The notes: generated from the letters alone by a model not told the origin. A stretch of DNA of 64,000 bases from Candidatus Latescibacterota bacterium (GCA_965206595.1 OZ242214.1:4032001-4096000), one strand, 5' to 3'; positions 4,387-27,976 are shown, counted from the stretch's first letter. Translations and numbers: made by a program.

Positions 4387-7300
4387 TTACTGAAGCCGCA
4401 AGTCCTCCGACACCTCGGCAAGCAAATCTTTGATCTTCTCCACCGCCTCCGGGCTGGGGGCGGTCTCCCCTCCTACCTCGATGCCGACCGTAAACCTGAG
4501 CTCGTTTCCAACGGCGGCCTTTAGCAGCTCCGGCACCTGGTCGGCCAGGTCCTGGATCTGGTCGGCCTCAAGAACCGCCTCTGCACGGGGCAACCCTCGG
4601 GTCCTGCTTCCCGACCCGTATAGGGGTTTCTCCTTTTCGTGAACTCCGCCGGCCGGCACCTGGAGGATCACGTGCTGGGCGCCCGCCAGGTCGCACGGCC
4701 ATTCCGCGCTGTCCCTTGTCGGCTCGATCCAGCGCGCCCGGATGGCCGACGCGATGGCTGATCGCACCGTGGTCCAGGGCAGATTGGCGCCAAGCTTGGC
4801 TGAGAGGGCGGTGGCAAGGGCGAGGGTGTTTGCCTTGCCGTCCTTCCAGGCGTCGGGGATCGACTCGGCCATCAACTCGGCAACTTCGATCGGCTCAGGC
4901 CGCGGCCTGAGTTTCGCGGCGGCCGTGAGGATTCCCGCCGGCACCGGCTCGTCGAGGATCGAGGCCGGTCCGCTCGTCAGCCAAACCAACCCCTGCTCGA
5001 CGGCCTGCGAGATGGCCGTTTCCAGGTGAGCCGGTTCGCATTTCGGGATGACCAGGATCTCCTCATACCCCTCCCGCGGCAGGCTCACGGTGTGGCCGCC
5101 GCCAAAGTAGTCGAAGACATCCTGCACGCTGATTTCCTCCGCCCGCCACAGCCCGGGGAGCTTCTCGTGCACGAGGAGGTCCGGGGCGATCCCGCTCAAC
5201 TCGGCTGCTTCGGGAAGCAGCACCTCCAGAGCCGGGTCCTGCAGGGCCGTCTCGTCCACGTCCGTGCGCCAGAAGGTGCGGGCGGTGCGGTCCGGGCGTA
5301 CGAGCCGCGCCACCCAGGTTCCCTGCCGGACTCCGTCCACGACCGTGTCCAGGACCTCTTTCGGCCGCAGCATCTTGGGCAGCTTGGGAAACTGCGCGAA
5401 GGCGCCCACGAGGTCCTTGACGCGGCGGGAGTCCTCCCCCTCGCGCCACAAGTCGTAGGGACCGCCCGGCACCATCGCCTCCGAGCTGACGGCGGTTTCC
5501 TGGATGCGCGACCGCTGGTCCGCCTTGATGATCGTGAACAGAGGCTCCCCGGTGACCACGACCTTGAAGGCGTGAACGGTGTTGTTCTCGTCGACGGTGA
5601 CGACCACGGAGTACGCCTGCCGCACGGCCTCCGGGATGCGTCTCCTCGCGGACTCCGTCTCTGTGGCGAGCATCTGCTCGCGGAGCGGATCGATGGGCTG
5701 ATCCTTGAGCTGCTCGCGGACCTCCACCCACCCGAGGTACTCCCGGACCCGCGTGCGCACCGCCTCGAGACCGTCCCGGGAAGGCACGGCCAGGACCACG
5801 GCGTTGCGGAAGACCCGGGGATGGTCCCGGGAGGTCCTCTCCTCGAGGAAGCGCTTGGCCGGAGCGCTCGGCTTGCCGGACTCGGAGGCCGCCTGCGGCC
5901 CGAGGACGGCGTAGTGGAAGTCGCCGTCGTCGCCGATATCGCTCGGTCTCTCCGGCAGGTTGTGCACCTTGGCGCCGGCCGCGGAGGCGCCCGAGGTGAG
6001 AGCCCTCTCCTTGTCGATGGCGTCGATGAGCTGCGATTCGACGAGTGTGGACGGCACCCGGTTGCTGCAGGCCTCGTGGTGCATCTGGCGCAGGTTGGGC
6101 CGGTTGCCCAGCCGCCACGCCCTCGGCAGTTCCCCCTCCGAGCCGGTCTCACCGGTGGCGATCTCCGCCTCGTCCAGGAACCACGACTGCTCCGTCCAGC
6201 GCCGCAGGGCCTTCTCCAACTCGATCCTGTCCGGATGGCCCGCTCCGAGCAGCACCATCAGGTCCCGGGTCAGGGCCTTGTGGCCGATGGGCTGGGAGCT
6301 CAGGAAGACCGAGACCACGGCCTGCTCCGTCTCCCGGTGTGCCAGGCCGGCCGCCTCGTCCTGGATCATGCGCGCCTTTTCCAGCTCGCCTTCGAGAATG
6401 GGCCGCCACTCCTGGGGCCGGCCGGTATCCGTGTCGACGCTGGCAATGGAAGCGAGCTCGCCGGCCGCCTCGGCCAGGCCATCCTTTCCCGGCTCGTGCA
6501 GAAAGACGTTGGGCCCCACGAGCGGGCTGGTGTCCCACCCGGCGACATCGCGCAAGGCGATGGCGAAGGTGCGCAGGATGCCACGGGTGCGCTGGAAGCC
6601 GTCGAGCTGGGTCCAGCGGGTGTAGAAGACCTCCGTGAGATCCGGGTGGAAGGGATAGCTGTTCAGGTAGCGCTCCTCGGCGCTGGCCCGCTCCTTCCCG
6701 GTCTGGTCGTCGAGGGCGGCGATACTGCCCACCGCCGAGGTCACATGCGGGCGGAAGACGCTCTGATCGCGGATCGACTCGGGGGTGAAGAAGCGGCGCC
6801 GCAGGACCTCGGCCACGTCCTCCTTGCTCACCGGACTGGCGTCCTCCTCCATCTGGCGGCCGAAGACCTCGGAGACATCGAGCAGCAGCTCCTGGCCGAG
6901 GTCGTCATGCTTCCTCGGGTCGGAGGCGAGCAGCGAGGCCACCATGGCGCAGCGGTCCACCTTGACCACCGCCTGCGTTAGGTACTGGAAGAAACTGACC
7001 AGGCGTCCCCGTGACTCCCCGGAAGCCTCGGCCAGCACCCGCAGGTACATCAGCACCTCGTCGAGCAGCACCAGCGTCGAGAGTCCGTCTCTCTGCGGCC
7101 TGGATAGCAGCTCCACCACCAGCGGCTCCGCGGGCGGGGTGTCGCGCTCCGCGTCCTTGCCGTCTGCGTGGATGAGCCGCAGGCCGTCCGGCCCCGCCAA
7201 CTGAAAGGCGAGGATGCTCCACGGGTGCTTGAGCATCCTGACCTCGCCATCCGGCCCCGGCGTCTCGACCCCCTTCTCCAGGTCGATCTTGTCGAAGCAG

Positions 7301-7704
7301 AGCGCCGCGACCCGGGCCTGCGGAGGCCTGAAGCCGATGTGCGCCTCAAACTCCTGCACGGCCGGCAGGGCGGGAAGCGCCGCCGGGTCGTGGACCAGGT
7401 GCCTCAGCGCGATGAGCGTGTGCGTCTTGCCGCCGCCGTAGTTGACGGAAAGCTTGCGGTACGCCTTGTCGCTGCGGCCGTCGAGCCGGTGGCAGACGTC
7501 CTTGACCAGCTCCCGCAGGTTCAGGGTGGGAAAGGTGAGGGCGAAGAACTCCTCGGGCCGCTCGTACACCGGCCGCTGGCCCTTCTGCATCACCACGTCG
7601 TAGAGGTCGGCAGCGAAGACGGCCAGCGACAGCTCCCCCGTCTTCAGGTCGTCGCGCAGCTGCACTACCTCGTGCCAGGGTTTCCGGGATGTCTTGGTTG
7701 TCAT
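4387..7704 (-). CDS. DUF499 family AAA+ ATPase (BREX-related system)
   Basis: 1105 aa with KPWHEVV, FAADL, Walker A YGGGKTH, Walker B LVLLDE, SYPFHP and FQRTRGILR. Confidence 0.9.
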   Translation of the reverse strand: MTTKTSRKPWHEVVQLRDDLKTGELSLAVFAADLYDVVMQKGQRPVYERPEEFFALTFPTLNLRELVKDVCHRLDGRSDKAYRKLSVNYGGGKTHTLIALRHLVHDPAALPALPAVQEFEAHIGFRPPQARVAALCFDKIDLEKGVETPGPDGEVRMLKHPWSILAFQLAGPDGLRLIHADGKDAERDTPPAEPLVVELLSRPQRDGLSTLVLLDEVLMYLRVLAEASGESRGRLVSFFQYLTQAVVKVDRCAMVASLLASDPRKHDDLGQELLLDVSEVFGRQMEEDASPVSKEDVAEVLRRRFFTPESIRDQSVFRPHVTSAVGSIAALDDQTGKERASAEERYLNSYPFHPDLTEVFYTRWTQLDGFQRTRGILRTFAIALRDVAGWDTSPLVGPNVFLHEPGKDGLAEAAGELASIASVDTDTGRPQEWRPILEGELEKARMIQDEAAGLAHRETEQAVVSVFLSSQPIGHKALTRDLMVLLGAGHPDRIELEKALRRWTEQSWFLDEAEIATGETGSEGELPRAWRLGNRPNLRQMHHEACSNRVPSTLVESQLIDAIDKERALTSGASAAGAKVHNLPERPSDIGDDGDFHYAVLGPQAASESGKPSAPAKRFLEERTSRDHPRVFRNAVVLAVPSRDGLEAVRTRVREYLGWVEVREQLKDQPIDPLREQMLATETESARRRIPEAVRQAYSVVVTVDENNTVHAFKVVVTGEPLFTIIKADQRSRIQETAVSSEAMVPGGPYDLWREGEDSRRVKDLVGAFAQFPKLPKMLRPKEVLDTVVDGVRQGTWVARLVRPDRTARTFWRTDVDETALQDPALEVLLPEAAELSGIAPDLLVHEKLPGLWRAEEISVQDVFDYFGGGHTVSLPREGYEEILVIPKCEPAHLETAISQAVEQGLVWLTSGPASILDEPVPAGILTAAAKLRPRPEPIEVAELMAESIPDAWKDGKANTLALATALSAKLGANLPWTTVRSAIASAIRARWIEPTRDSAEWPCDLAGAQHVILQVPAGGVHEKEKPLYGSGSRTRGLPRAEAVLEADQIQDLADQVPELLKAAVGNELRFTVGIEVGGETAPSPEAVEKIKDLLAEVSEDLRLQ

Positions 7705-8039
7705 GTTGTCCTCGCGGAAGGATGGATTCGCACCACCTCGCTAGGCCGGATCTCACCAAGGAGTCGCTCCAGCTCAGGCACCAGGTCCCCCAAGGCCTCG
7801 AGGGTCTTGCTGGACGGGCGCAGGATCGCAACACCCAAGTCGAATTGCCACAATGGTTGCTGGTCGGGGAGGCTATTGTCCATGGTCACCAGAACATCGA
7901 AGTGCTTTTTAGCCGCGTGTAGTAATGCCCCGTTCTTGAGACCCTTCCAGCCGCGGTATTCCACCGTCTCCACCATCAGTTCCTCTTTGAAGTATAGCCT
8001 GAGTCGGATCGGAATATCCTCATCAAGAAGTACTCGCAT
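7701..8039 (-). CDS. DUF5615/VapC45-like PIN toxin
   Basis: MRVLLDEDIP...GWKGLKNGALL...LVTMD; lies directly downstream of the DUF433 gene. Confidence 0.8.
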   Translation of the reverse strand: MRVLLDEDIPIRLRLYFKEELMVETVEYRGWKGLKNGALLHAAKKHFDVLVTMDNSLPDQQPLWQFDLGVAILRPSSKTLEALGDLVPELERLLGEIRPSEVVRIHPSARTT

Positions 8040-8286
8040 TCCGCTCCCTCATGTGATCCAGTCCTTGGGAAGCAAGCTCGAGGAATGAATCTAGTTGCCA
8101 CCGCTCGACCGTGGGGTAATCCTGGAGAAACTCCTCGATGGAGTGCCCACCCTTGAGGTAAGCCACCAAGCTGTCTACCGGGACGCGCGTGCCGGCAAAC
8201 ACCAGATCGCCACTATGGACTTCTGGATCACGCCGGACAACCTTCTCCAGCGAGATTTCCCTGCGCACCGAGGTTCCCATCTCCAC
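8023..8286 (-). CDS. DUF433 antitoxin
   Basis: DPEVHSGDLVFAGTRVPV...G.SIEEFLQDYPTV signature. Confidence 0.85.
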   Translation of the reverse strand: MEMGTSVRREISLEKVVRRDPEVHSGDLVFAGTRVPVDSLVAYLKGGHSIEEFLQDYPTVERWQLDSFLELASQGLDHMRERNASTS

Positions 8287-8947
8287 TCCTCCTCTCTGAG
8301 GTAAGCTCCCTGAGTTTCTCCCTGAAGTATCGAAAACTCGGAGATGCGTTTTTCTCCACGTCCAACTCCGGGACGATTCTCTCCGCCCAAGTTGACTTTT
8401 CCCTGCCCACGGCCGACCAACCCTTCCCCTTCAGCACACTGGAGCCGCCCCTGAACACGGCGTCCGCGAGAAACTCCCAGGTTCCGCAGATCGAGTCGTT
8501 CCTGTAACGCTTGAGGACATCCTCCCTCGCTTGCGGATAGGCTGCCCTGATCGCGGGAAGGTCGCCCAGCAGCCATGCCTCCCCCTCCTCTACGGCGATG
8601 CAGAAGCGGGTCTCCGGTCTCGGGTTGCAGTGCTCCAGGACTCCAAGGAGTTCTTGGCGAAAGGTCCTCCGGCATCTGTCATCCAGGTCACAAACCACGA
8701 TGACCACAGCGCGGTAGCTGGCGCCATACCCGGCAAAGGTCTTCCCATTTCCCCGGAGCAACCTCGGAAGCTGGTCGAGCAGGAGGCGCTTCGTCGCCTC
8801 AGTGCCACCCGTCAACCCCCTTGGAATGCGCCCGACCCCCTTGTACGCATGAACCCGAAAGGTGTGCTGATCGTCCACGATCTTCGGAACCAAGATGTCC
8901 AGCGCTCGCTTGCCCGAAGTATCTTCGACGAGGATCTCGAAGTGCAC
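8228..8947 (-). CDS. DUF4276-like (TOPRIM-like) partner of ABC ATPase
   Basis: GTG start VHFEILVED, then VVCDLDD, EEGEAWLLGD and N.SPSF motifs. Confidence 0.75.
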   Translation of the reverse strand: MHFEILVEDTSGKRALDILVPKIVDDQHTFRVHAYKGVGRIPRGLTGGTEATKRLLLDQLPRLLRGNGKTFAGYGASYRAVVIVVCDLDDRCRRTFRQELLGVLEHCNPRPETRFCIAVEEGEAWLLGDLPAIRAAYPQAREDVLKRYRNDSICGTWEFLADAVFRGGSSVLKGKGWSAVGREKSTWAERIVPELDVEKNASPSFRYFREKLRELTSERRSGDGNLGAQGNLAGEGCPA

Positions 8948-8952
8948 TCTGA

Positions 8953-10275
8953 TCACCTGGCGTCGAGGTACTCGCTGAACCAAAGACCGCCCAACGGCAA
9001 TCCTTCCTCGACCATGTTGTTCACAGTCGGATCGTCGCTGGCTCGTCGAATCTTTGAAAGACCATCCTCACCCTTCTCCAGAATCCAGACTTCCTCCGGG
9101 GAAAGCGCATCGACGAAATACGGCTGGTGTGTCGTAACAAAGACCTGCGAGCCCTTGCTTCCGGTCGCATGTTCCCGGAATTCGTTGGCCAGGGTCTCCA
9201 GGAGTTTATGATAAAGGCCGTTTTCCGGTTCCTCGATGCAGAGGAACGGCGCCGGATCCGGATCCTGGAGCAGCAGCAGGTAGGCGAAAACCTTCAGCGT
9301 CCCGTCGGATACTTGCTGGGCATAGAAGGGATCCTGAAAGCTCCTGTCGTTGAATTGCAGGAGCAGCCGGCCGTCATTGGTTCTTTCCGTGTCGATCCGA
9401 TCTATGCCCGGTATCCTTCCGGCTATCTCCTTCAAGACAGCCTTGAAACGTTGCGGATGTTCGCGCTCCAGGAATTGCACGACGTTGCCGAGATTGTCCC
9501 CTTGACTATTCAGATGTCTCTGAGGACCGGCCAGCGGCAAACTGCGAGCCGCGGCCGGGGTGAAGTAACTCAGGTACCATCCTTCGATAAAGCGGCGGAA
9601 TGCGGAGATTCGCGGATGTTGCTTCAAGGCGCCAACCGTAGCAATGCCAAGCCTGTGGCGGTCTTCCAACTCGATCTGTTCGGTCTCGTTGGGCTCCTCC
9701 TTCCTGCTCAGTCTTATCAGCTCTTCCACCTTCAATCGCTTCTTCTCGATATCGTCTTCCGCGATTGCTTCGTCCACCAAGCCCTTCATGTGGATGTCCC
9801 TCGCTTCATACCCTTCATCTCCCTTCCATGCCACACCCCGGCCGTCACTCAGCCACAAGAACGAGAACGGTCGCCCATAGCTCTGGTTTCTCCTTCTCTG
9901 TCTGAGACGCTCTCGCGATACATAAGGACGACCCGACTCGTCTGACTCTATGGCGATCTCATAGGTAATCGGACGGGCTCTTCCTTGTTCCCGGTAGTAC
10001 ACCTCGAACTCGACAGGCCCCGTCTCCCCCTGGGTCCGCAGCTTCTCGAAGCCGCCGCGACCCCGGGCGTCGCAAGCCTCTTCGACACCGAGTCTCAAGG
10101 CGTCGGCCAGGAATCCGAATGCATCGAAGAGAACACTCTTCCCTACTCCGTTCCTGCCGATCACCGCTGTCATGGGAGTGAGAGGTCGGTTCTCCTGTTC
10201 GTTCCACAGGCGCCCCAATGTCACATCCCTGAGCAGCTTGAAGTTCCTTACTCGAAACCCCTCTATCTTGGTCAT
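8953..10275 (-). CDS. ABC-type AAA ATPase (AAA_21/COG4637-like)
   Basis: GRNGVGKS, VSDGTLK signature, IEEPENGLY and VTTHQP. Confidence 0.9.
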   Translation of the reverse strand: MTKIEGFRVRNFKLLRDVTLGRLWNEQENRPLTPMTAVIGRNGVGKSVLFDAFGFLADALRLGVEEACDARGRGGFEKLRTQGETGPVEFEVYYREQGRARPITYEIAIESDESGRPYVSRERLRQRRRNQSYGRPFSFLWLSDGRGVAWKGDEGYEARDIHMKGLVDEAIAEDDIEKKRLKVEELIRLSRKEEPNETEQIELEDRHRLGIATVGALKQHPRISAFRRFIEGWYLSYFTPAAARSLPLAGPQRHLNSQGDNLGNVVQFLEREHPQRFKAVLKEIAGRIPGIDRIDTERTNDGRLLLQFNDRSFQDPFYAQQVSDGTLKVFAYLLLLQDPDPAPFLCIEEPENGLYHKLLETLANEFREHATGSKGSQVFVTTHQPYFVDALSPEEVWILEKGEDGLSKIRRASDDPTVNNMVEEGLPLGGLWFSEYLDAR

Positions 10276-10279
10276 TTCT

Positions 10280-10687
10280 TCAGTCCTCCCGGCAGGTTGC
10301 CCGCTTCTCCGCCCACTGGATTACAGCCTCGGCGATCTCTATCGCATCCCGGTACGCCTCTTCGGACACAGGCTGGTCAACGCCTGGATAGCGCGTGTCC
10401 ACGGCATAGGGGGTGAGTCCCACAGCGCGACGAATCCTGTCCGGGACATCCTCACCATTCTCTTCAAGCATCGAGAGCAGAAGGGCCAGGTTGTGCACGT
10501 AAGGGAAATCGATGTTGCGCAAGATCATCACGGCCTTGACGGCCTTCTCGGCGGCTTGCTGCGCCTGAAAGCACAGGTCCTCCAAGTAGGCACCGGGGAC
10601 GCGGTTCCCCGCCATCGCGAGATTGCTTCTGGCGCGGTTCAGCCACTCGCGAGGATCATCCGGAGGAAACCGCTCAGGTGGACTCAT
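10280..10687 (-). CDS. HEPN domain protein (MNT-HEPN toxin-antitoxin)
   Basis: WLNRARSNL, CFQAQQAAEKAVKA, HNL and RYPG motifs. Confidence 0.85.
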   Translation of the reverse strand: MSPPERFPPDDPREWLNRARSNLAMAGNRVPGAYLEDLCFQAQQAAEKAVKAVMILRNIDFPYVHNLALLLSMLEENGEDVPDRIRRAVGLTPYAVDTRYPGVDQPVSEEAYRDAIEIAEAVIQWAEKRATCRED

Positions 10688-10985
10688 AGACCACCCTTCC
10701 TTCCTGCAGCGCCGGCTTGATGACCAACGCATGGCTGTCCTTGTAGCGCTCTACGTCCGACGGCGAGACCAGGATCGCATCGACCGCGACCCGAACGCCG
10801 TACAACTTCTCGTAGATCCGGGTCCTGAGATTCGCGTCTCCTCCCTCTTTGATAATGAGAAGATCCACGTCGCTGTTCGGTGTCATGGCGCCCCGGGCAG
10901 CGGACCCGAAGAGGACGATGCGCTCCGGCTGTGCCACCTCCACGACGCGCCGGATGATGTCATCCAGGGTGTCTTGGTCAATCAC
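10674..10985 (-). CDS. Minimal nucleotidyltransferase (MNT antitoxin)
   Basis: LFGSAARG...SDVDLLII motif. Confidence 0.88.
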   Translation of the reverse strand: MIDQDTLDDIIRRVVEVAQPERIVLFGSAARGAMTPNSDVDLLIIKEGGDANLRTRIYEKLYGVRVAVDAILVSPSDVERYKDSHALVIKPALQEGRVVYEST

Positions 10986-10997: not shown

Positions 10998-11570
10998 TCA
11001 TGTGACGCCGGCAGCGGTCCCCAGACGCCCGGCAAGGGCATCGAAATCCTCGGGACACTTCTGCCGAATCGCATCGATCCGGCGCGATGCCTCTTCTCCC
11101 AGAGGCTTGCGGCCACCGCCGGGCGCGTCTGACAAGCCGCGTTCGACGACAAACCGGTCGAAGTACTCCTCCTTGACTTGGATCTCCGCGCGCACCTCCG
11201 CCCAAGTCCAATCATCCGGCAACCTCAGGCCCGCAAGGACCCAGGTCTCGATTTCCTCCCAGGCATTCTCGGCCAGGAAGGCCCGATCGCTGCCGAATTG
11301 CACCTCGAGACGGTCGAGGCTCTGGCGACGATTCGTGTCGCCGTCACGATCAATGATCAGGATGAAGATATCCGTCATTTCCCCATGCTTTCTGACCACC
11401 TCTGCCATGCGTTCCGACTTCAGCGCTTCCCGGAAGCCACCGAGTAGGGGATCACGGCAAACCTCAACCTGCACATGCCGCCTACCAATAGATCGAAAGA
11501 GCCTTGAGAAAAGAGGTTTCAGAATGTACTGATCCTTGCGGAAATCCTCGGGGATGATGAGGACGTTCAC
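10998..11570 (-). CDS. TOPRIM-like partner protein of ABC ATPase
   Basis: GTG start overlaps the ATPase stop (GTGA). LIIPED...IIDRDG...EEIETW acidic pattern. Confidence 0.65.
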   Translation of the reverse strand: MNVLIIPEDFRKDQYILKPLFSRLFRSIGRRHVQVEVCRDPLLGGFREALKSERMAEVVRKHGEMTDIFILIIDRDGDTNRRQSLDRLEVQFGSDRAFLAENAWEEIETWVLAGLRLPDDWTWAEVRAEIQVKEEYFDRFVVERGLSDAPGGGRKPLGEEASRRIDAIRQKCPEDFDALAGRLGTAAGVT

Positions 11571-12874
11571 TCGCCGTCTCCCTCCGCTTCCTCGTAGTTT
11601 TCGGTGAAGGCCAGGGCGGTCTCCATCCAGCCTTCCATAAGCAGCCCTCCCAACCCGCTCCCGGACTTCCGCAGTTGTCTTGCGTTGGGCAGTTCGGCAA
11701 CCAGGCGAATGATGGCATCGTCCGAGTCTTCCAACCGGCAAACGATGGACATGTCCTCGAAGGTGGTGTCGTTGACAAGAGTCAGCAGATCCGGCGCATG
11801 GGTGGTGGTGATCATCTGAACTCCTCCCTTTGCGGCCTGCTTTTCGATCAGTTCCAGCAAGAGCGACTGGCGCGCCGGGTGAATTCCGGTGTCGATCTCC
11901 TCGAAGAAGTACAATCCATTGGACCTCTTGCCGAGCAGCAGGGCCAGCAGGGCGAGGAACCGGAGGGTGCCGTCCGAGGCGCTATAGGCGGATACCGTTC
12001 TCTCGTTGCCCTCCAGGATTTGGAGATGGACTCGACCGCTGGGGTCATGTGGAAATCTTAGATCCCTTACATCCATGGGGGTGAGTTCTCGCAGCCACGC
12101 CGTCAGGACATCCTTACGTTCGGCATCCGAGCAGAGGGCTTTGAGCACCACGGCCAGGTTCTCGCCTGAGTCTCCCAGGACAGTGTGACCAGGAAGGGCC
12201 GGCTCCCGCATGCGCTCCGGGGACAACTCCAGAAAGCGCATGCCGGCGAAGATGGCCATCGTCTGTAGAATGTGTGGATCCAGAAACTCCTTGCTGGGCT
12301 GGGATATCGATATGGGTTCACCCATTGTCTCCACCATAGAGTCGAGTTCCTTTTGGAAGGTAGGATCTCTCTCTCTGATCGATAGGAAGATTCTGTAAAG
12401 CAGGGGATAGCCATCCGCCGGCGTTGGTACGGAAGCAGCTCGATCGGGATTGCTGTTAACGGTGAAAGACCGGTGCTCCTTCGCATATCCCGGCTTGATT
12501 CTTCCGGTAAGTTTCTCTCGTGCAATCCGGAACTCATTGTTCTCTCTTTCGTATCCAACTTCGATCAAATAGCATACGTCTGCGGCCTTCAATTGGATGC
12601 CCACCTCAATTGAGAACCCGGATTGTCCGAACCTGACAATCTCATTCGCTGCTCCCCGGATCGGCTCCCACGCCCGCTGACCGCCGGGGCCGTACTTGCC
12701 GCCGATGATCTCCGCCAGCGTATAGCCCCGGCCGATGCCGTGCAGGAAGCGGAAAGCATCGCGGATATTGCTTTTGCCGCTGGCATTCGCGCCGACGATT
12801 ACGGTGAACGGGCCGACGCGCAGGGTCTCGTCGGCGAAGTTCTTGAAATTCACGAAGCGAATGGATGTAATCAT
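11567..12874 (-). CDS. ABC-type AAA ATPase (AAA_21-like)
   Basis: GANASGKSN, ASDGTLR, FFEEIDTGIHP and ITTTHAP. ATGA overlap with the methyltransferase stop. Confidence 0.9.
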   Translation of the reverse strand: MITSIRFVNFKNFADETLRVGPFTVIVGANASGKSNIRDAFRFLHGIGRGYTLAEIIGGKYGPGGQRAWEPIRGAANEIVRFGQSGFSIEVGIQLKAADVCYLIEVGYERENNEFRIAREKLTGRIKPGYAKEHRSFTVNSNPDRAASVPTPADGYPLLYRIFLSIRERDPTFQKELDSMVETMGEPISISQPSKEFLDPHILQTMAIFAGMRFLELSPERMREPALPGHTVLGDSGENLAVVLKALCSDAERKDVLTAWLRELTPMDVRDLRFPHDPSGRVHLQILEGNERTVSAYSASDGTLRFLALLALLLGKRSNGLYFFEEIDTGIHPARQSLLLELIEKQAAKGGVQMITTTHAPDLLTLVNDTTFEDMSIVCRLEDSDDAIIRLVAELPNARQLRKSGSGLGGLLMEGWMETALAFTENYEEAEGDGE

Positions 12875-19449: not shown

Positions 19450-19718
19450 GTCAGGCCACTGGCATGTGATGCGCCGAGCCGGTGTAGCGCACGGTGGCCG
19501 ATGCGGATCAACCAGGGCTGTGCATCGGGACAACGCGCAAACAGTTGGTCGGAGGCGGCAAGGGGATCGTCCCCCACCTCGAACTCGCCGGTCTCAATGT
19601 CAATCGCCACGATCCGTCCGCTGTTGCCCTCTTCCACCTGCGGCCTCACTCGTTGCTCGTAGATCTCCTGACCAAGCCGGGCGAACTCCTCTTTGCTATG
19701 GCGCGGCTGTCGTTCCAT
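19446..19718 (-). CDS. Small hypothetical protein (DUF5678-like) coupled to the aspartic protease
   Basis: GQEIYEQRVRP...GRIVAIDIETGEFEV; AAGGAG RBS; ATGA overlap with the protease gene. Confidence 0.7.
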   Translation of the reverse strand: MERQPRHSKEEFARLGQEIYEQRVRPQVEEGNSGRIVAIDIETGEFEVGDDPLAASDQLFARCPDAQPWLIRIGHRALHRLGASHASGLT

Positions 19719-20373: not shown

Positions 20374-20454
20374 GGTGGGCTCTCCAGCGCCTTCCACGCC
20401 GGCTTCCGGCCTTCATCATGGCACGGCCTCATCAATCGACAACGCAACAGAGGT

Positions 20455-20955
20455 TCATCCCAGGAAGGCATCGGGTTCCTGGTCAGGTTCTCTGGCCTTC
20501 AGTTTCCTGTCCTTGGTCCAGATGTGCACTCGCCCCCCTGCCCCCCGGTACCTTGTCTGCTTGAGCCTCCGGGCTTCGTCGATCAGTGTACCATCGCTCA
20601 AGTCAATGCCTTCGAGGACGTGAGTGTCGACAAAGCGTGCTACTGCCTCCCTGAGCCAGCGAGCCTCCCGCGAAAGCAAGACGGTCCATGGCATGCCTTC
20701 GTCGAGACTGGACAGGACGCTATCTCGCATCTTCCCGGCCAAAGACACCCGCTGATTGCCGTCCGCCACATCGGCGATATGGCTGGCCAACTCGTAGACG
20801 CAAGGCGCAGTGACGTACAGCCGCGCTCCGCTCCTAGCAGCATCGGAGACGCGCGTCTTTACTTCCTCAACTGCTTTCTCCGTCGAACACCCAGGAACGG
20901 CGAACAGCTCCAGCAGGTAGCTGGTATCGATCAGGTAGACCGACAGCGGGTTCAC
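20455..20955 (-). CDS. PIN-domain-like protein downstream of ABC ATPase
   Basis: YLIDTSYLLEL...E...DLSDGTLI...IWTKDRKL fits the PIN acidic pattern; TAGTG overlap with the ATPase stop. Confidence 0.7.
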   Translation of the reverse strand: MNPLSVYLIDTSYLLELFAVPGCSTEKAVEEVKTRVSDAARSGARLYVTAPCVYELASHIADVADGNQRVSLAGKMRDSVLSSLDEGMPWTVLLSREARWLREAVARFVDTHVLEGIDLSDGTLIDEARRLKQTRYRGAGGRVHIWTKDRKLKAREPDQEPDAFLG

Positions 20956-22241
20956 TACAGAGCCTCGACCCACTTCAGTACCTTGTCGCGTTGGCGTTCC
21001 TCGAACTCCGGTGCCAGGTACTGCTCGACGACACGACGCGAGACGAGATCCCCCAGCTGTCCGCGCTCAAGGAACTCATCGAACCTCGGAAGGTCGGTCA
21101 GCTCGATGAGATCCGCGGCTTCCCTGGTCTGGCTCCAAGTGCAGAGAACCACTCCCTTCATCTGCTCGTCCGTCAGGCTGTTCATGGTGGCGGGGTTGTG
21201 CGTGGTAACCAGTACCTTCAGCTTGCGTCGCTGAGTGGCATCGGCTATCGCGGCGGTCAATACCTCTACTCGACTCGGGTGGAGCCCGTTGTCGAACTCC
21301 TCCACGATGACGCGCGAGCCCTCCTGGACGGTATCCAGGGCCGTCAGGATGGCCAGGGTTCTCAGTGTTCCATCGGACAAGGCCCGGGCGTCCACGGTGA
21401 AACCTGTCCTCTCCTGAAGTCCGAAGATCACGTCCCCGAGATCGGTCGTGGTGAAGCTGAATTCTTCGTACGGCTCGTCGGGAAGCTGGCGTATTCGAGA
21501 CAGCAGCCCAGCCAGCGATGCCTGCTGTGCTTCGTCTCCTACGCTAAGGGCGTAGAGAACCGCCGACAGGTTGGCGCCATCCCGGGAGAGAACACTGTTA
21601 CCGATCCGCTCGTAACCATGCATCAATTTGGGATTCGGGTCGAAGACGAAGGAGGCCTGCAAGTGACGTATGACGATCCCCACCAGTCGATTGCAGTGCT
21701 TGAGATTGCGGTTCTTCTGTGCGATCTCCTGATACTGATATAGAACGGACCGTTCTGATGAGGCGGCGGTCTGGGGTTTCCTGCCACCGCGGGCGAAGTT
21801 GTCGTATCTCACCGTTAGATCTAGTGATGCTGATCCAGGATTCCTTGGAAGCGTTTCATAGATCACACGGTCGGCAAAGGTCAGTTCTTCAGCGGCAATC
21901 TGGGGATGCGGTTTCGTAAAGAGGCTCAGGATGTAGCAAAGCCTCTTTGGCTCTTCCTCCAGCTTCAAGCTAGCAGTGAATCCCAAAGTGAATCTATCTC
22001 CACCAGCTCGACCGCAAGCCTGAAGACCTCCCCGGATCTGAAGGCCGACGGACGGACGACCAACGTCCGCGATCTCATGGAGGGGTTGACCCCGGGCAAC
22101 GAAGGAAAGCAGCTCGATGGCCTCGATGACATTGCTCTTGCCCGAGCCGTTCGGTCCGATCAGAAGCGTGAACGGCCGGAGCAAGTCGATTTGGGTGTCC
22201 TCGAAGCCCTTGAAATCAGTAAGGTGATGCATTCTGGCCAC
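20955..22241 (-). CDS. ABC-type AAA ATPase (AAA_21-like), start uncertain
   Basis: GPNGSGKSN, LSDGTLR, VEEFDNGLHP and VTTHNP. Confidence 0.88.
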   Translation of the reverse strand: MARMHHLTDFKGFEDTQIDLLRPFTLLIGPNGSGKSNVIEAIELLSFVARGQPLHEIADVGRPSVGLQIRGGLQACGRAGGDRFTLGFTASLKLEEEPKRLCYILSLFTKPHPQIAAEELTFADRVIYETLPRNPGSASLDLTVRYDNFARGGRKPQTAASSERSVLYQYQEIAQKNRNLKHCNRLVGIVIRHLQASFVFDPNPKLMHGYERIGNSVLSRDGANLSAVLYALSVGDEAQQASLAGLLSRIRQLPDEPYEEFSFTTTDLGDVIFGLQERTGFTVDARALSDGTLRTLAILTALDTVQEGSRVIVEEFDNGLHPSRVEVLTAAIADATQRRKLKVLVTTHNPATMNSLTDEQMKGVVLCTWSQTREAADLIELTDLPRFDEFLERGQLGDLVSRRVVEQYLAPEFEERQRDKVLKWVEAL

Positions 22242-22309
22242 CTTGGAATGACTGGGTTTGTTTTCGGCTTGGCATCTTCCTTCCTACCGCCTCCATTCCC
22301 GCATCTTCT

Positions 22310-22581
22310 CCCTCTCCCGGACGAATCTCGCTTCTTCTGGCAACAGCTCGATGGCCCGGGGCCAGGCTTCCTCCACCGCCGGTGGGCTTCACGGGCCAGC
22401 AGGATCTTGCTCTGGGCAAACTCCAGAAGCGCCCGAGGATCCGGCGTACACCGAGTCCCCCGCCCGCTCGAAGTAGCTGAGCGGCGGGCTCGCGGAAGGC
22501 CGCCTGACCGGGCACCCGTTCCGACTCCACGCCGCGGCAATGGAGCAGATCGTCGAGGTTGATGGGGAGAATGGCGCTCAT
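22310..22581 (-). pseudogene. Fragment of an AlbA/Schlafen-type ATP-binding regulator gene
   Basis: MSAILPINLDDLLHCRGVESERV N-terminus, then abrupt loss of frame. Confidence 0.45.
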
Positions 22582-22598
22582 GGAGATGGATTCTCTTC

Positions 22599-24299: not shown

Positions 24300-27200
24300 C
24301 TACTCCGACGCCTCCATCACCGACCCCGCCGCGATGGTGAAGGTGCGCGACTCCCGGTCCCCCACCACCAGCTTGGCGAAAGGGTTCTGCACCCGCATTA
24401 GACACGGACGGGGCGTGGCGCAGTCGAAGACGACGTAGAGCCAGTACCGTTCTCCAAGGTTGCAAGCCTTGATCCATTCGTTCTCGCTCATCTCCACGCC
24501 TTCGGTGCCAGCCCTTCCCTTGACTTCTATGGCTCGCGGTTCCATTCCCTCTCGGCGGGACAGGAGGTCGAAGCCCGGCCAGTCAGGCAGTCCGGCCCTC
24601 CTCGCCATCGCCGGCTTGCAGACATCCTGCACCTGGGCGCCCCGTTCCTCCTCGTAGGCGGTGGCTACCTCCATGGCGATGGCCTCGACATCGGCGTCGT
24701 AGCGCTCCGCCTCCCCGGCGTCCTGGGCCGGCACCACCAGGGCATGCACCAGGAATTCGGCTTCCCCCGCCCGGATGAGGTCCGGCTCCGACCGCATCTC
24801 GGCGAGCCGGTGGGCACGCACGGCGTTCAGGCTCCGCTGCCGTTCCCTGACCTTGGCCAACTCCTCGGCCGCCTGGCGGTCCCCGGCCCCCGCCTTCTCT
24901 CTGAGGCTGGACCGGGCGGCGGCCAGCTCGGCGGCCTGGTAGTCGAAGCCGCGGTTGACGAACTCCAGGCGCCTGGGCAGATCGTCCAGGCGGCGTTGGC
25001 GGTTCGCCTGCACGATCTGCTCGCTCACTTCCTCGTCAAGGAAATCTGCGGTCTCTCCGGCCATGCCGCGCGCCAGGGTGGCCAGGGGTACCCCGCCCGG
25101 GGCGATGCCGCCGGCTCCGCGCAGCAGAAGCAGGTGTTCGACGGGGCACTCCTTCACTGCGCCATCACTGGTCTGGCGCAGCCCGACGAGGCGCGACTCG
25201 ACCAATTGGGGTTCCCCTTCAGCCTGGCCGCGGGCGTCCAAGGGAGGTTGCTGCTGGACACTGACCCGCGCGATGTGAAACAGGTAAGCCTCAGTCGCAT
25301 AGGGGTCGCTGAACAATGCTCCACGCAGCCCTTCGGCTCCGAGACGCTCCCGCACCGCGGCCGAGAGGGTGTCGAAGACCGGCTCGCCGGGGTGCAGCCA
25401 GATCGCCTCTTCGCGGCTCTCGGGTTTGTACACGGTCAGCCGCTCCCTCGCCTCCTCCGGATAGGCTTCGAGGGCGGGCAACAGAGGGTCGGCCGCGCGG
25501 GGCCGGTCCGGCATCAGGCCGAAAGCGCCGCCCGGATCCCCTTCGAGGCGCAGGTCGAGGAGCGGCGCCGATCTCTCGACAAAACGGCGCACGTACCCGG
25601 GCAGCAGCCGGCGGTAGTTCTCCTGTTCCATCTCCTCGTTGAGATCGTCCAGCCGGCCGCGCACCTCGCCGCCGTCCCCGTAGAGGGAGCGCTCTCTTGC
25701 CGCAAGGGCCCGGACCTGCTCTTCCGTGAGGTGGCCTTCCATCTGACTGGCTGCGGCCTCGCCGCCGTCCTCACCGGTCACCGCTTGCTCCAGGTACGCC
25801 CGGACGGACAGCCCCTCGAAGAGACGGCCCACCACGTCGAAGACCTTGTCCGAGCTGAGCTGTTGGCGGATCGCTTCCAGCTTGTCGAGCAGCGTCTTGA
25901 GCACCCTACCCTCGCGCGTGCCGGCGGAGACGAGGTTGACGATGACTACCGGATCGTGCTTCTGGCCGTAGCGGTGGATGCGCCCCATCCGCTGCTCGAG
26001 GCGGGCCGGGTTCCAGGGGATGTCGTAGTTCACCATGAGCCAGCAGAACTGCAGGTTGATCCCCTCGCCGGCGGCGTCGGTGGCCACCAGGTAGGTGGCC
26101 CCGCCCTGGTCGGCCGGCCGGCGGAACAACTCGACCTGGCGTTCCCGCTCCGGGTAGGCCAGGCCGCCGTGGATCAGGGCGACGCGGCCGGTGTAGCCGA
26201 GGCCTTCGAGGCGGCGCACCAGGAATGCCGCCGTGTCCCGGTGCTCGGTGAAAATGATGAGCTTCTCGTCGCGGTAGTGCGGCGCCCCAAGCACCTCCCG
26301 CAGCTTCTCGAACTTGGACTCCTCGCCGGCGTCAAAGAGCTTCTGGGCCTTGTCGAGCAACCCGGCGACCTTGACACGCTCCGCCTCCAGCTCCGCGAGG
26401 GTGACCGCCACCGTGCCCTCGAGGGCCTGGCTCTCGAACTCCTCGTGCTGCTCCCCTTCGTCGCTGGCCGCCTCCTCGTCAGCGGTGCTCGTTTCGAAGA
26501 GGTCGTCGAGCCGGCCGAGGCGTTGCTGCCGCCTCGCGAGCTGCTCCTCGGTGAGGCGGCCGCTGCGGATGTCGTCGATCAGACCCTCCAGCTTCTCGAG
26601 GCGGCGCTCGAAGGAGCGCAGAAGGGCATAGGTGGAGCTGGCCAGGCGGCGCTGAAAGACGCTCATGGCCAGCCGGGCGGCGGAACGGTTCAGCGCCTTT
26701 GCCCAGTTGTAGTGATAGCGCATGTACTCGGTGGTCTCGTCGTACAGCTCCTGCTCACCGTCCGGTCCCTGGGACAGCTCGTAGCTGAGGGTGTCGCAGT
26801 TGCGCTGCGGGTAGAGCGGCCGATGGTCGAAGTGGACCATCTCCTCCTTGGTGCGGCGGATGAAGTGCCGCTGCCGGGAGTCGGGCGGGAACTCCTCGAA
26901 GGCGTCGAAGGTGGAAAGGGCATCCGGCAGCAGCAGGCGCCACAGGTAGTAGTAGGGGTGGTCCTTGCCCATGTGCGGGGTGGCCGTCAGCAGCAGCAGG
27001 TGCTGCGCGGACCAAGGGAGCTCCCACCGATCCTTGTCGTCGGACTCGGCGCCGGCCAGGGCCTCGGCCAGCCTGTAGCGGCCCGTCTTGCGCACCCGGA
27101 AGTCCGGCTGACGGTCCGCTGACAGCTTGTGAGCCTCGTCGAAGACCACGAGGTCGTAGGGGTCGGTCTGCGGGTCCTTGAGGTGGCCGAACATGCGCTC

Positions 27201-27884
27201 CCCCGCCAGGGTGTCGACGCTGACGATGACGAGGTCGCTCTCCGGGCCGAGGAAGGGGTTGCCGGCGCGCGCCTCGGTGCCGCCGACGATGCGGAAGGGC
27301 AGACGGAAGAGGGTGCGCATCTCCCGCTCCCAGTTTCCCACCAGGCCGGCAGGGGGCACGACGAGCACGCGCCGCAGGAGCCGGCGGGACAGCATCTCGC
27401 GCACGTACAGACCGGTCATGATGGTCTTGCCGGCGCCGGCGTCGTCGGCCAGCAGGAATCGTAGCGGGGACTGCTGGAGCATCCGCTGGTACACGGCGAT
27501 GCGCTGATGCGGGAGCGGGTCGATCAGCGATGTCTCGGTGGCGAAGGCGGGATTGAAGAGGTGGCCGCTGGCGAGGCGATGCGCCTCGGCGACGGCCGAG
27601 ACCGCCTCCGGATCGGCGGAGAAGTCCATGCTCGGGGGCCCGGTTGGACCTTCATCGGCCGAGGGCTGATCCGCCCCTTCTGCCGGCAGGTTCTCCAGCT
27701 CGACGACGCGCCGCCAGGCCAGGTTGTTGGGGCGGGACTGTCCGTTCTCCCAGCGGTTGACGGAGGCAAAGGAGACGCCGACGAGCTCCGCGAACTGCGC
27801 CTGCGTCAGACCCCGGAGGCCCCGGATGCTCTTGATCCGGCGGGGGTAATCTCCGGGAATTCCGTCCGTTAGAGCTGGTGACAT
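24300..27884 (-). CDS. XRE-HTH/SNF2-family helicase/DUF3883-like nuclease fusion (BREX-related system)
   Basis: LTQAQFAELVGVSFASVNRWENG HTH; LADDAGAGKT, FDEAH, LTATPH, ATDAAGEGINLQ, WNP.RLEQRMGRIHRYGQ; C-terminal GFDLLS...IEVKG...SENEW. Confidence 0.92.
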   Translation of the reverse strand: MSPALTDGIPGDYPRRIKSIRGLRGLTQAQFAELVGVSFASVNRWENGQSRPNNLAWRRVVELENLPAEGADQPSADEGPTGPPSMDFSADPEAVSAVAEAHRLASGHLFNPAFATETSLIDPLPHQRIAVYQRMLQQSPLRFLLADDAGAGKTIMTGLYVREMLSRRLLRRVLVVPPAGLVGNWEREMRTLFRLPFRIVGGTEARAGNPFLGPESDLVIVSVDTLAGERMFGHLKDPQTDPYDLVVFDEAHKLSADRQPDFRVRKTGRYRLAEALAGAESDDKDRWELPWSAQHLLLLTATPHMGKDHPYYYLWRLLLPDALSTFDAFEEFPPDSRQRHFIRRTKEEMVHFDHRPLYPQRNCDTLSYELSQGPDGEQELYDETTEYMRYHYNWAKALNRSAARLAMSVFQRRLASSTYALLRSFERRLEKLEGLIDDIRSGRLTEEQLARRQQRLGRLDDLFETSTADEEAASDEGEQHEEFESQALEGTVAVTLAELEAERVKVAGLLDKAQKLFDAGEESKFEKLREVLGAPHYRDEKLIIFTEHRDTAAFLVRRLEGLGYTGRVALIHGGLAYPERERQVELFRRPADQGGATYLVATDAAGEGINLQFCWLMVNYDIPWNPARLEQRMGRIHRYGQKHDPVVIVNLVSAGTREGRVLKTLLDKLEAIRQQLSSDKVFDVVGRLFEGLSVRAYLEQAVTGEDGGEAAASQMEGHLTEEQVRALAARERSLYGDGGEVRGRLDDLNEEMEQENYRRLLPGYVRRFVERSAPLLDLRLEGDPGGAFGLMPDRPRAADPLLPALEAYPEEARERLTVYKPESREEAIWLHPGEPVFDTLSAAVRERLGAEGLRGALFSDPYATEAYLFHIARVSVQQQPPLDARGQAEGEPQLVESRLVGLRQTSDGAVKECPVEHLLLLRGAGGIAPGGVPLATLARGMAGETADFLDEEVSEQIVQANRQRRLDDLPRRLEFVNRGFDYQAAELAAARSSLREKAGAGDRQAAEELAKVRERQRSLNAVRAHRLAEMRSEPDLIRAGEAEFLVHALVVPAQDAGEAERYDADVEAIAMEVATAYEEERGAQVQDVCKPAMARRAGLPDWPGFDLLSRREGMEPRAIEVKGRAGTEGVEMSENEWIKACNLGERYWLYVVFDCATPRPCLMRVQNPFAKLVVGDRESRTFTIAAGSVMEASE

Positions 27885-27924
27885 TCTGCCTTCTATCCTT
27901 CTGCGGTAGATTCGGTTACGCCAG

Positions 27925-27976
27925 ATTGTACCCAATGGTCCCGTGATTTGTCAAATCGCTTATAGCATGTGCTATA
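27925..27976 (-). promoter_or_regulatory. Sigma70-like promoter with two palindromic operator candidates
   Basis: Minus strand TTGACA (27949-27954), 18-nt spacer, TACAAT (27925-27930). Palindromes GATTTG-T-CAAATC (27945-27957) and TATAGCA-TG-TGCTATA (27961-27976). Confidence 0.65.

Follow-up and report, generated by a model that had tools for sequence, protein, structure and literature searches.

A heavily loaded Hma-type locus of Candidatus Latescibacterota with predicted defence modules nested between its core genes

Here we describe a row of 20 co-oriented genes in a 64-kb stretch of DNA from a Candidatus Latescibacterota bacterium (GCA_965206595.1 OZ242214.1:4032001-4096000, hereafter the window), organised around the core genes hmaA, hmaB and hmaC. 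Judged by its family matches, the core is an Hma system, a class named by Payne et al. 2021 (PMC8565338) and reclassified by NAR 2026 (PMC12839542) as the Type-1 DUF499-centred BREX-related (BR) system. We consider it very likely that the row represents one Hma system, whose two internal junctions and 3' flank have gathered other defence-type modules in the manner of the published embedding architecture.

Nesting as such is not a new idea: embedding, orientation bias, co-regulation and a backup hypothesis are already present in Payne et al. 2024 (bioRxiv 10.1101/2024.01.29.577857), and the locus is a heavily loaded member of that pattern rather than a new kind. The survey reported embedded genes in 931 of 1485 Hma systems (62.7%), with 96.7% of the embedded genes sharing the orientation of the host system, coined HEC for 'Hma-embedded candidate', and discussed co-regulation, a genomic sink and PrrC/BrxU-type backup. 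Liu et al. 2024 (PMC11232893) found insertions in 66.5% of hma loci and called the region a 'defence gene insertion hotspot', and backup effectors embedded in BREX and BR loci are described in NAR 2026. Payne et al. 2024 admitted no more than three genes embedded between adjacent hma genes (legend of figure 1B), a limit of the survey and not a biological definition; the window exceeds it, with nine and eight frames in its two gaps.

The Hma core

Family assignment with PADLOC, Pfam and NCBIfam profiles, a step proposed by an earlier reading of this stretch from its sequence alone (the original prediction), yielded classes for both core and cargo. The helicase, methyltransferase and DUF499 ATPase families which that reading had placed at the core were recovered by PADLOC (536, 396 and 248 bits) and Pfam (SNF2, DUF1156 and DUF499), the three frames are intact as described, and the view that such families form a BREX-related methylation-based system is supported by NAR 2026. 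HmaA aligns with its PADLOC profile over residues 103-1186, beginning only at profile position 68, matches Pfam HTH_3, SNF2-rel_dom, Helicase_C and NOV_C, and carries a DEAH box and an EVK motif. Start codons throughout the row were picked from ribosome-binding sites and the borders of family matches; hmaA begins with the ATG at 27884 behind the ribosome-binding stretch AAGGATAGAAGG, and an alternative TTG at 27935 was rejected as it falls within the promoter. In HmaB, neither the FAGGG nor the DPPY motif varies across the 20 sequences compared, and identity ranges from 72 to 88% among the best 120 of more than 7900 matches. The core order A-B-C (helicase, methylase, ATPase) on one strand is shared by related loci, the closest of which are L001 (hmaC 96%, hmaA 92% identical) and L013 (92% and 92%; tblastn).

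The core resembles Type-1 BR systems in its SNF2 helicase-PD-(D/E)xK nuclease, its DUF1156 N6-methyltransferase with a nested variable insert, its DUF499 ATPase and the one-strand A-B-C arrangement, and differs in that HmaA starts with an XRE-type helix-turn-helix (HTH), whereas PMC12839542 names a TUDOR domain as the N-terminal element. A Type-2 BR system (DUF499/DUF1156/DUF3780 with an HKD helicase) was ruled out: Pfam gives no DUF3780 or PLD (HKD nuclease) match in any frame of the row, and the models of the Type-2 set score low (PADLOC DUF499 52 bits, DUF1156_MTase 131 bits). Likewise, the NCBIfam equivalog models for DUF499/DUF1156 anti-phage proteins reach 89 bits against a cut-off of 1200 and 174 against 1000, which fits models of another subtype. 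DUF3780 is confined to Type-2, where it occurs in 98% of the taxa together with the HKD helicase (PMC12839542), so its absence, already remarked upon in the original prediction, is expected in a Type-1 locus with a C-terminal NOV_C nuclease.

Layout of the row

The 20 frames, established by open reading frame (ORF) listing and start-codon inspection, run consecutively on the minus strand from 27884 to 4387, and none of the 20 requires a plus-strand placement. The widest gap is 51 nt, between hmaA and the following gene, and at least ten junctions overlap. ATGA overlaps are found at 12871-12874, 7701-7704 and 19446-19449, a GTGA overlap at 11567-11570 and a further overlap at 8953-8956, while TAG and GTG share one base at 20955. 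Seventeen of the frames, all in sense, constitute cargo, with nine in the hmaA-hmaB gap (8183 nt) and eight in the hmaB-hmaC gap (5166 nt), amounting to 13.3 kb within a 10-kb three-gene system. Congruent with this layout, the original prediction had claimed about 20 co-oriented minus-strand genes behind one strong promoter candidate (which agrees with 11 of 12 consensus positions), inter-core cargo of about 8 and 5 kb, and a list of stop/start overlaps, all of which are present and to which the one at 8953-8956 is added. The cargo classes it had named, SPARTA, ABC ATPases and toxin-antitoxin-like pairs, were also recovered, through PADLOC, Pfam and NCBIfam matches and by comparison with solved SPARTA chains.

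Internal promoters or terminators separating the modules, which the same prediction had counted against itself, were sought with E. coli-type consensus scans. Such scans give no more sites than shuffled sequence, terminator-like hairpins numbering 10 against 11.8 expected and 6 against 8.5 expected; non-canonical promoters are invisible to these scans and they cannot decide the matter. Co-expression of the row is suggested by its spacing, its orientation and the scans. No repeated junction sequence marks the cargo borders within 3900-28100, the sole multi-copy family being a conserved ABC-ATPase coding motif, and conservation upstream of hmaC is limited to its own ribosome-binding site. Among the frames of the row there is no integrase-type family (Pfam, NCBIfam), and Rfam and tRNA scans of the window detected no RNA gene. 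The GC content at third codon positions (GC3) is 0.88-0.90 for hmaA, hmaC and the AAA_35 gene and 0.60-0.80 for the cargo, values that, with 0.65-0.85 in the remaining genes of the window, cannot tell whether core or cargo is the more host-like.

Cargo turnover among related loci

To place the locus among relatives, species-representative genomes were scanned with an HmaB alignment, giving 596 loci, of which the best 80 were kept with 10-kb flanks each, a limit that hides larger gaps. The kept loci (denoted by L-numbers) stem mostly from metagenome-assembled genomes labelled Latescibacterota, Dehalococcoidia, Poribacteria, Caldilineaceae or Binatia. The hmaA-hmaB gap could be measured in 74 loci and spans 26-8882 nt (median 3064), and the hmaB-hmaC gap, measurable in 68, spans 7-9924 nt (median 1927) and is shorter than 300 nt in seven. 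Both gaps are measurable in 65 loci: only one (L072) keeps both below 300 nt, in the other 64 one or both reach 300 nt, and three hold a total cargo equal to or above that of the window. Compared to the published Hma-embedded systems, with which the locus shares same-orientation nesting, HEC-01 and PDC families and an AAA_21 ATPase with an unannotated partner between hmaB and hmaC, the load is heavier here, and embedding in 64 of 65 sampled relatives contrasts with the proportions of the two surveys cited above.

The gaps contain 432 ORFs of at least 70 amino acids, 358 of them in sense and holding 91% of the residues. These group into 203 clusters, including 144 singletons, and a PADLOC family was assigned (E ≤ 1e-10) to 49 of 115 cluster representatives. 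Families encountered comprise Avs2, CBASS cyclase with a 2TM effector, Gabija, Dsr2, NsnABC, SIR2-APAZ/pAgo, long pAgo with a Cas4-like nuclease, HEC-07, several PDC families and type II restriction-modification. Since gap size and cargo content both vary among the 80 loci, the original prediction that the inter-core gaps are insertion hotspots stands on this comparison: compact loci exist, and gaps from 7 nt to more than 9 kb with changing cargo were found in place of the invariant or absent cargo that had been named beforehand as speaking against it. The loci are related to each other, hence the counts do not represent independent events.

Several cargo families are wholly or almost wholly restricted to one of the gaps. 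Of the 33 members of the M07A-like ATPase family, 32, in 32 loci, lie in the hmaB-hmaC gap, where all 15 members of the HEC-01A family also reside, and all 23 members of a 190-amino-acid partner family follow hmaB. SPARTA is located before hmaB in 10 of 10 cases, directly abutting it in eight of these loci, and in L017 it begins 37 nt after hmaA.

Between close relatives, whole modules are present in one and missing in another, with breaks at gene boundaries, and one gene has suffered an internal deletion. Relative to L013, the additional blocks of the window are 24292-20389 (AAA_35 gene to M07B), 19844-16098 (small pair and SPARTA) and 8287-7711 (DUF433/DUF5615); the differences from L001 fall at 10653-7713 and in the block from hmaA to the ABC-ATPase remnant (blastn in both cases). 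The ATPase occupying the slot after hmaB is only 54% identical to that of L001, as compared to 92-96% for the core (tblastn). Alignment with these neighbours shows cargo lost by deletion and replaced allele by allele.

A single genome (contig OZ244619.1) carries two Hma loci with differing cargo, L001 at 3.14 Mb and L026 at 4.57 Mb. Jointly they hold most of the modules of the window, and such a constellation is a ready source for exchange between paralogous loci.

Duplicated core-gene ends and the downstream flank

Extra same-strand copies of a core-gene end were detected outside the gene in 13 of 81 loci: the 5' end of hmaB in six, the 3' end of hmaB in six, hmaA ends in two and, in the window, the 3' end of hmaC twice. 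The two window repeats (Table 1) bracket a PDC-S31 gene with an IS91-type remnant as well as a 124-codon frame at 2221-2595 that stands between them, and the flank at 2182-4386 looks like two successive insertions at the hmaC end. The island continues past 4387, where the original prediction had drawn its boundary.

The IS91-type repeat of about 200 nt is found in the window at 4043-4204, 39000-39226, 44064-44260 and 52229-52448, and in L001 at 21166-21389. The window copies are 76-85% identical to the L001 copy and cover the 3' end of Y2 transposase frames (Pfam Y2_Tnp at 43421-44185 and 51733-52293), and one copy lies just downstream of hmaC in both the window and L001. IS91 elements inserted in the orientation of this remnant, with the transposase 3' end facing hmaC, would mobilise the DNA on their other side. 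Mobilisation of hma-adjacent DNA by IS91 rolling-circle read-through was considered and dropped because of this orientation.

Further stubs were recovered in relatives. In L060 (3905-4382) a 5' stub of hmaB is directly followed by a 3' stub of hmaA, the order expected if two tandem loci had been fused by deletion; L023 carries after hmaC, at 22490-22908, a second hmaA that has lost an internal part and shares 99% identity with the resident gene; and in L055 an hmaA fragment (9176-9599) lies just before hmaB. By their sequence, the three are remnants of duplicated or fused Hma loci. In Payne 2024, Liu 2024 and NAR 2026, as far as their accessible text goes, we did not find duplicated core-gene ends flanking cargo; Payne 2024 and the NAR paper do not mention recombination there.

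A variable module inside hmaB

Residues 505-632 of HmaB are encoded by a low-GC module (0.47 against 0.68 and 0.63 in its flanks) without DNA similarity to L001 or L013 (blastn). It is most similar to L051 (73%) and L057 (70%), against a median of 32%; their hmaB genes belong to other phyla and not to the loci that the remainder of the gene resembles most. Residues 1-500 are 93% identical to L013 and 89% to L001, and residues 690-1081 are 87% and 85% identical, rendering the gene a mosaic. A nested target-recognition insert has been described in these methylases (PMC12839542). The module is probably part of this insert and probably a specificity determinant that has been swapped, an exchange with which the mosaic is in keeping. 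We did not find such a swapped module in the accessible text of Payne 2024, Liu 2024 or NAR 2026.

Promoter, operator and the HmaA N-terminus

The sigma-70-like site upstream of hmaA is the sole match in 16000-31000, compared to a mean of 2.0 in shuffled sequence. Adjacent to it, the perfect palindrome TATAGCACATGCTATA is a single site in the window, with none expected from shuffles. The element is conserved: a match to TATARCAYNTGYTATA with at most two mismatches is present upstream of hmaA in 43 of 50 sequences, with TTGACA (at most one mismatch) within 20 nt past the palindrome in 26 of these 43 loci, mostly at +6, and the entire 1.66 Mb of loci contain about 47 sites in all. On the protein side, all 50 HmaA N-termini contain HTH_3, and its recognition stretch does not vary. 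The XRE-type HTH of HmaA probably controls the promoter by binding the palindrome, which would amount to autoregulation of the operon.

Controller (C) proteins, together with the C-box, control type II restriction-modification operons. The arrangement here is reminiscent of these in pairing an HTH_3-family module with a palindrome beside the -35 element of a nuclease-gene promoter; it differs in that the HTH is fused to the effector instead of forming a separate small protein, and in that the palindrome, a candidate operator from sequence alone, lies upstream of the -35 element without overlap.

We did not find the conserved palindrome and the N-terminal HTH of HmaA discussed in Payne 2024, Liu 2024 or NAR 2026, in so far as their text was accessible. 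The HTH is unmentioned in the main text of Liu et al. and in Payne 2024, and promoter, operator and XRE are unmentioned in the NAR paper (PMC12839542). The supplementary table of Liu et al. contains 284 'HTH_3' entries, on many HmaA homologues, so the HTH fusion is visible in those data despite the silence of the main text.

Cargo genes

All features of the row and its immediate flanks are collected in Table 1, in the direction of transcription.

Table 1. Annotated features between the candidate operator and the downstream flank (window coordinates).
Feature	Position	Strand	Basis and remarks
16-bp perfect palindrome TATAGCACATGCTATA, candidate operator	27961..27976	.	6 nt upstream of -35 hexamer
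Sigma-70-like promoter TTGACA-18 nt-TACAAT	27925..27954	-	11/12 consensus positions
hmaA, 1194 aa (amino acids)	24300..27884	-	N-terminal XRE-type HTH, SNF2 helicase, C-terminal NOV_C (PD-(D/E)xK) nuclease
AAA_35/AAA_22 ATPase, 549 aa	22599..24248	-	Pfam; no PADLOC family; GC3 0.90, as core
121-codon ORF, doubtful	22216..22581	-	Arg/Gly-rich
PDC-M07A ABC ATPase	20955..22232	-	PADLOC 337 bits; Pfam AAA_21; Walker A motif
PDC-M07B partner	20455..20955	-	PADLOC 148 bits
HEC-01A-like ABC ATPase pseudogene	19733..20386 (228-codon frame 19733-20419)	-	blastn against L001, L013, L025
90-aa protein	19446..19718	-	No family match; strong ribosome-binding site; ATGA overlap with next gene
Retropepsin-like (clan AA) aspartic protease homologue, 123 aa	19078..19449	-	DTG motif; TIGR03698
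SPARTA TIR-APAZ	17652..19052	-	PADLOC Aga_TIR 219 bits; Pfam TIR_2
SPARTA short pAgo (MID-PIWI)	16136..17641	-	PADLOC pAgo_I 553 bits
hmaB, DUF1156 N6-adenine methyltransferase, 1081 aa	12871..16116	-	PADLOC HmaB 396 bits; Pfam DUF1156 68 bits
Variable low-GC module in hmaB, residues 505-632	14221..14604	-	Variable alignment columns
Second PDC-M07A-like ABC ATPase	11567..12874	-	PADLOC 206 bits; ATG overlaps hmaB stop
TOPRIM-like partner, 190 aa	10998..11570	-	No curated family; no PADLOC match
MNT-type nucleotidyltransferase (MntA-like antitoxin)	10674..10985	-	NCBIfam MntA 33 bits, below cut-off 60
HEPN-domain protein, putative toxin	10280..10687	-	Pfam HEPN 88 bits
HEC-01A ABC ATPase	8953..10275	-	PADLOC 628 bits
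HEC-01B (DUF4276, TOPRIM-like)	8228..8956	-	PADLOC 304 bits; Pfam DUF4276 28 bits, below cut-off
DUF433 protein, antitoxin-like	8023..8280	-	Pfam DUF433 56 bits
DUF5615 protein	7701..8039	-	Stop overlaps hmaC start; Pfam DUF5615 20 bits, below cut-off 23.8
hmaC, DUF499 AAA+ ATPase, 1105 aa	4387..7704	-	PADLOC HmaC 248 bits; Pfam DUF499 60 bits
IS91-type element end remnant	4043..4204	+	blastn; one of four copies in window
PDC-S31 / DUF2971 gene, GC 0.35	3151..3957	-	PADLOC 159 bits; start 3957 with ribosome-binding site
Direct repeat, last 78 nt of hmaC	2717..2794	-	92% identical
Second direct repeat, hmaC 3' end, 53 nt	2182..2234	-	92% identical

In the first gap, relatives of the AAA_35 ATPase, of about 520-550 amino acids, are widespread and follow either hmaA (L025, L026, L030, L038) or hmaC (L012, L018, L022, L030). 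The 121-codon frame has no match in Pfam, PADLOC or NCBIfam and no blastp match to any ORF in the gaps of the 80 loci, and is possibly a remnant or spacer. The subsequent ABC ATPase and its neighbour have the composition of PDC-M07, with M07A followed by M07B. The 228-codon frame thereafter was rejected as an intact gene. Over residues 71-228 it shares 90% identity with positions 291-448 of a 448-amino-acid L001 protein, an intact counterpart that scores 181 bits to HEC-01A, while the first 70 residues are unrelated: about 667 nt are deleted at 20209, together with a frameshift, and 178 nt coding for the P-loop remain as an out-of-frame 5' piece.

The 90-amino-acid protein has relatives in 14 related loci (tblastn), and its neighbour matches TIGR03698 with E 1.8e-10 and 41 bits, under the cut-off of 57, and Pfam gag-asp_proteas weakly. 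Pairs of a small protein and a retropepsin-like protein with a DTG motif recur in differing versions as Hma cargo (L026 6247-6932, L030 5798-6404 and window 19078-19718), and, being outside PADLOC, may represent an unrecognised two-gene module.

SPARTA is encoded by adjacent genes 10 nt apart, with 19 nt separating pAgo from hmaB. The TIR-APAZ protein aligns to solved TIR-APAZ chains (E 4e-19, two aligned stretches), placing Glu79 on the catalytic Glu77 (HMMER), E77A being a catalytic mutant of the SPARTA TIR in MapSPARTA (PMC10899771), and pAgo matches solved SPARTA pAgo chains over its full length (E 2e-97). The gene order, the full-length pAgo match and the aligned TIR glutamate are shared with MapSPARTA, CrtSPARTA and BabSPARTA; dissimilar are the more divergent TIR-APAZ and the embedding of the pair immediately upstream of hmaB in place of a stand-alone position. 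The main texts of the Hma papers discussed here do not mention SPARTA as Hma cargo, and whether the supplementary tables of Payne 2024 or NAR 2026 already list it is left open; that of Liu et al. holds neither 'piwi' nor 'argonaute' entries. In L025, the final 32 pAgo codons (9857-9952), protein-identical to those of the window (100%), directly precede hmaB with the remaining SPARTA gone, a stub that in sequence terms is cargo loss by deletion.

The second gap opens with an ATPase and a 190-amino-acid partner. Assignment of these as a full PDC-M07 pair was rejected, with the ATPase at 206 bits and no M07B match for the partner. The partner family has invariant E8, D74-x-D76, E106 and E108, consistent with a TOPRIM site; the AlphaFold (AF2) model (pLDDT 89) has the C-terminal TOPRIM region of OLD, 6nk8_B, as top Foldseek match (E 2.7e-3, probability 0.99, TM 0.42); and a language-model search leads to clusters of DUF4276 and OLD-like TOPRIM proteins. 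Pfam DUF4276 is matched at E about 0.01 in 5 of 24 members, and profile comparison to HEC-01B gave a probability of 0.3% and E 0.19 (hhalign). The TOPRIM-like reading is drawn from a modest fold match and motif conservation, and is a weak assignment.

The order of the MNT and HEPN genes and their 14-nt overlap fit a type VII toxin-antitoxin pair, the MntA match being sub-threshold. The two following genes have the composition of HEC-01, with an ABC ATPase (A) and then a DUF4276/TOPRIM-like protein (B), and the DUF433/DUF5615 pair also precedes hmaC in L026 and L077.

Surroundings of the row

At the window edge, a partial DEAD-box helicase on the plus strand (1-1581; PADLOC PDC-M23B 601 bits, weaker Hachiman HamB) converges on the Hma row, suggesting that the defence island reaches past the edge. 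On the other side, 28321-39211 comprises about 11 kb of long frames (743, 255, 262, 462, 376 and 363 amino acids, and others) that match neither Pfam nor PADLOC; the first of these frames and the hmaA promoter region are divergently oriented. The segment 40318-44185 encodes a GmrSD-type nuclease with a C-terminal DUF5655 (PADLOC Orf5 651 bits, HEC-06 210 bits), followed by the first 346 of 834 profile positions of a type I HsdM beside an IS91-type transposase frame, and seems to represent a type I restriction-modification locus that has been disrupted. Insertion sequences are abundant in the surroundings, which besides the IS91 pieces include an IS66-family transposase (60333-61808) and an ISL3-type zinc-ribbon fragment (51163-51726).

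Discussion

We propose that Hma would work like a restriction-modification system, with HmaA as helicase-nuclease effector, HmaB as N6-adenine methyltransferase and HmaC as DUF499 ATPase. Halomonas HmaA alone shields E. coli from T4 through its nuclease domain (Liu et al. 2024). In compact relatives the three genes are spaced by 7-65 nt, and this spacing, together with the sole conserved regulatory site being upstream of hmaA, argues that expression of hmaB and hmaC relies on transcription reading through from the hmaA promoter. One promoter, gated by the XRE-type HTH of HmaA via the palindrome, would then drive the whole row. Such dependence would imply selective tolerance, with inserts accepted only if co-oriented, without terminator and tightly joined, giving rise to the 'welded' appearance and making co-transcription of the cargo likely. 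The cargo would move between Hma loci via recombination within conserved core-gene ends. Its modules (SPARTA, ABC-ATPase/TOPRIM pairs, HEPN/MNT) are most likely independent second layers, mostly abortive, and not parts of the Hma machine.

A number of observations weigh against this proposal or parts of it. A single 23.5-kb transcript is conjectural and unproven, and internal promoters are possible, for example in the low-GC stretches 21700-22000 or 13900-14500, given the E. coli-type scans. The centre of the palindrome near -50 leaves the sign of regulation unreadable from position. Core-end repeats are confined to 13 of 81 loci, and some, such as the near-identical copy in L023, look more like tandem duplications than captured cassettes. 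The 80 loci were taken as the top-scoring of the 596 and are mutually related, and the fidelity of cargo families to one gap fits inheritance with allelic exchange equally well as repeated insertion. Over-expression of HmaB left T4 infectivity unchanged (PMC11232893), hence the restriction-modification logic of the core is not established. As for the cargo, the published HEC-01 representative gave no defence against the phages assayed (Payne et al. 2024), the PDC families are candidates without a published test, and the hhalign probability and TM score above speak against the TOPRIM assignment of the 190-amino-acid partner.

Other explanations were weighed against the same data. The gaps may be a plain genomic sink for autonomous modules with their own promoters inside upstream coding sequence, co-orientation then reflecting collision avoidance. 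The cargo indeed has its own base composition, consensus scans are blind to non-canonical promoters, and seven of nine embedded candidates worked when cloned with about 150 bp of upstream sequence, albeit with an inducible promoter added (Payne et al. 2024); yet the tight spacing and overlapping junctions of the row leave no intergenic room, SPARTA follows closely upon hmaA in L017, terminator-like sites are not enriched, and the conserved operator has no second copy in the window and is scarce across the loci, so we view this as a possibility that falls short of probable. We are somewhat more doubtful that the ATPase/TOPRIM-like pair (11567-12874, 10998-11570) represents integral fourth and fifth Hma components of the clade instead of cargo. 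The ATPase and its partner hold the same position in 32 and 23, respectively, of the 68 loci with a measurable hmaB-hmaC gap, an ATGA overlap with hmaB is seen in the window, L001 and L013, and all Halomonas hma loci are reported to carry an ATPase/partner pair between hmaB and hmaC (PMC11232893). The pair is however absent from the seven loci where this gap is below 300 nt and from many others, it has diverged far beyond the core between close relatives, and its GC3 is cargo-like.

A tighter coupling, in which modules are held inactive by the intact core, or sense inhibitors of it, and fire abortively, takes PrrC-EcoprrI and PARIS-Ocr as its models, and the same analogy was proposed in the discussion of Payne et al. 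2024. PrrC within EcoprrI and BrxU within BREX are likewise second-line effectors inside a modification-based system, although there the partner is a single dedicated one, in contrast to the many unrelated modules here. Three intact ABC-ATPase pairs of the OLD/PARIS/Gabija kind and one broken gene lie inside the operon, the slot directly after hmaB is occupied by an ATPase/TOPRIM-like pair in 32 loci, all Halomonas hma loci carry such a pair, and the junctions with the core genes are translationally tight. On the other hand, an interaction is not demonstrated by any sequence feature, there are compact Hma loci that carry no cargo, the cargo families occur in changing combinations and, according to Payne et al., for the most part outside Hma, the available literature describes self-contained triggers for SPARTA and HEPN/MNT, and one cargo gene has decayed here with the remainder retained. 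Guarding of the core against phage inhibitors, as suggested in the original prediction, is by analogy possible, is unsupported by the sequence and is to our mind improbable. An assembly chimera, with reads from different Hma loci or organisms joined, might be suspected from core genes 70-90% identical across co-occurring lineages, the two Hma loci of one genome and composition switches at module borders. Nevertheless, frames and overlaps are intact across the junctions, and the alignments continue in independent assemblies, which argues against it: the ABC remnant, SPARTA and hmaB are continuous in L001 over 5.6 kb at 90.5% identity, the hmaA-AAA_35 junction recurs in L025 and L026, M07A/M07B in L026, HEC-01-hmaC in L013 and DUF433/DUF5615-hmaC in L026 (blastn). 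The junctions 22598-22233, 20455-20389 and about 10290-10650 are without such corroboration, and we regard a chimera as very remote.

Returning to one Hma system with embedded modules, a further-reaching view is that Hma loci of the HTH-bearing clade are self-regulated capture platforms, in which a single HTH-gated promoter serves modules recruited by core-end recombination and the hmaB specificity module is swapped likewise; we advance this tentatively, and think it less than probable. If true, circles could integrate in Campbell fashion, or tandem or paralogous loci could undergo unequal exchange, the direct repeats of hmaA, hmaB and hmaC ends would be scars, and the scaffold would be an integrase-free analogue of the integron for immune genes, explaining both the commonness and the strict co-orientation of embedding. 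With integron cassette arrays the locus shares co-oriented, promoter-less-looking cassettes behind one promoter and a content that is variable between relatives; it differs in lacking an integrase and repeated attC-like sites, the scars being instead copies of the core genes' own ends.

Aggregated, the locus shows how far the nesting of defence systems can go, and with a cargo load beyond the gap limit of the published survey, annotation using that limit may miss loci of this kind. The conserved operator and promoter, combined with the HTH of the effector, offer a testable handle on the expression of embedded genes, a question left by the published papers, and the duplicated core ends, fused tandem loci and slot-specific allelic exchange offer one on how embedded genes arrive. 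Finally, the AAA_35 ATPase, the 90-amino-acid and retropepsin-like pair and the ATPase/TOPRIM-like pair emerge as candidate new defence modules by 'guilt-by-embedding'.

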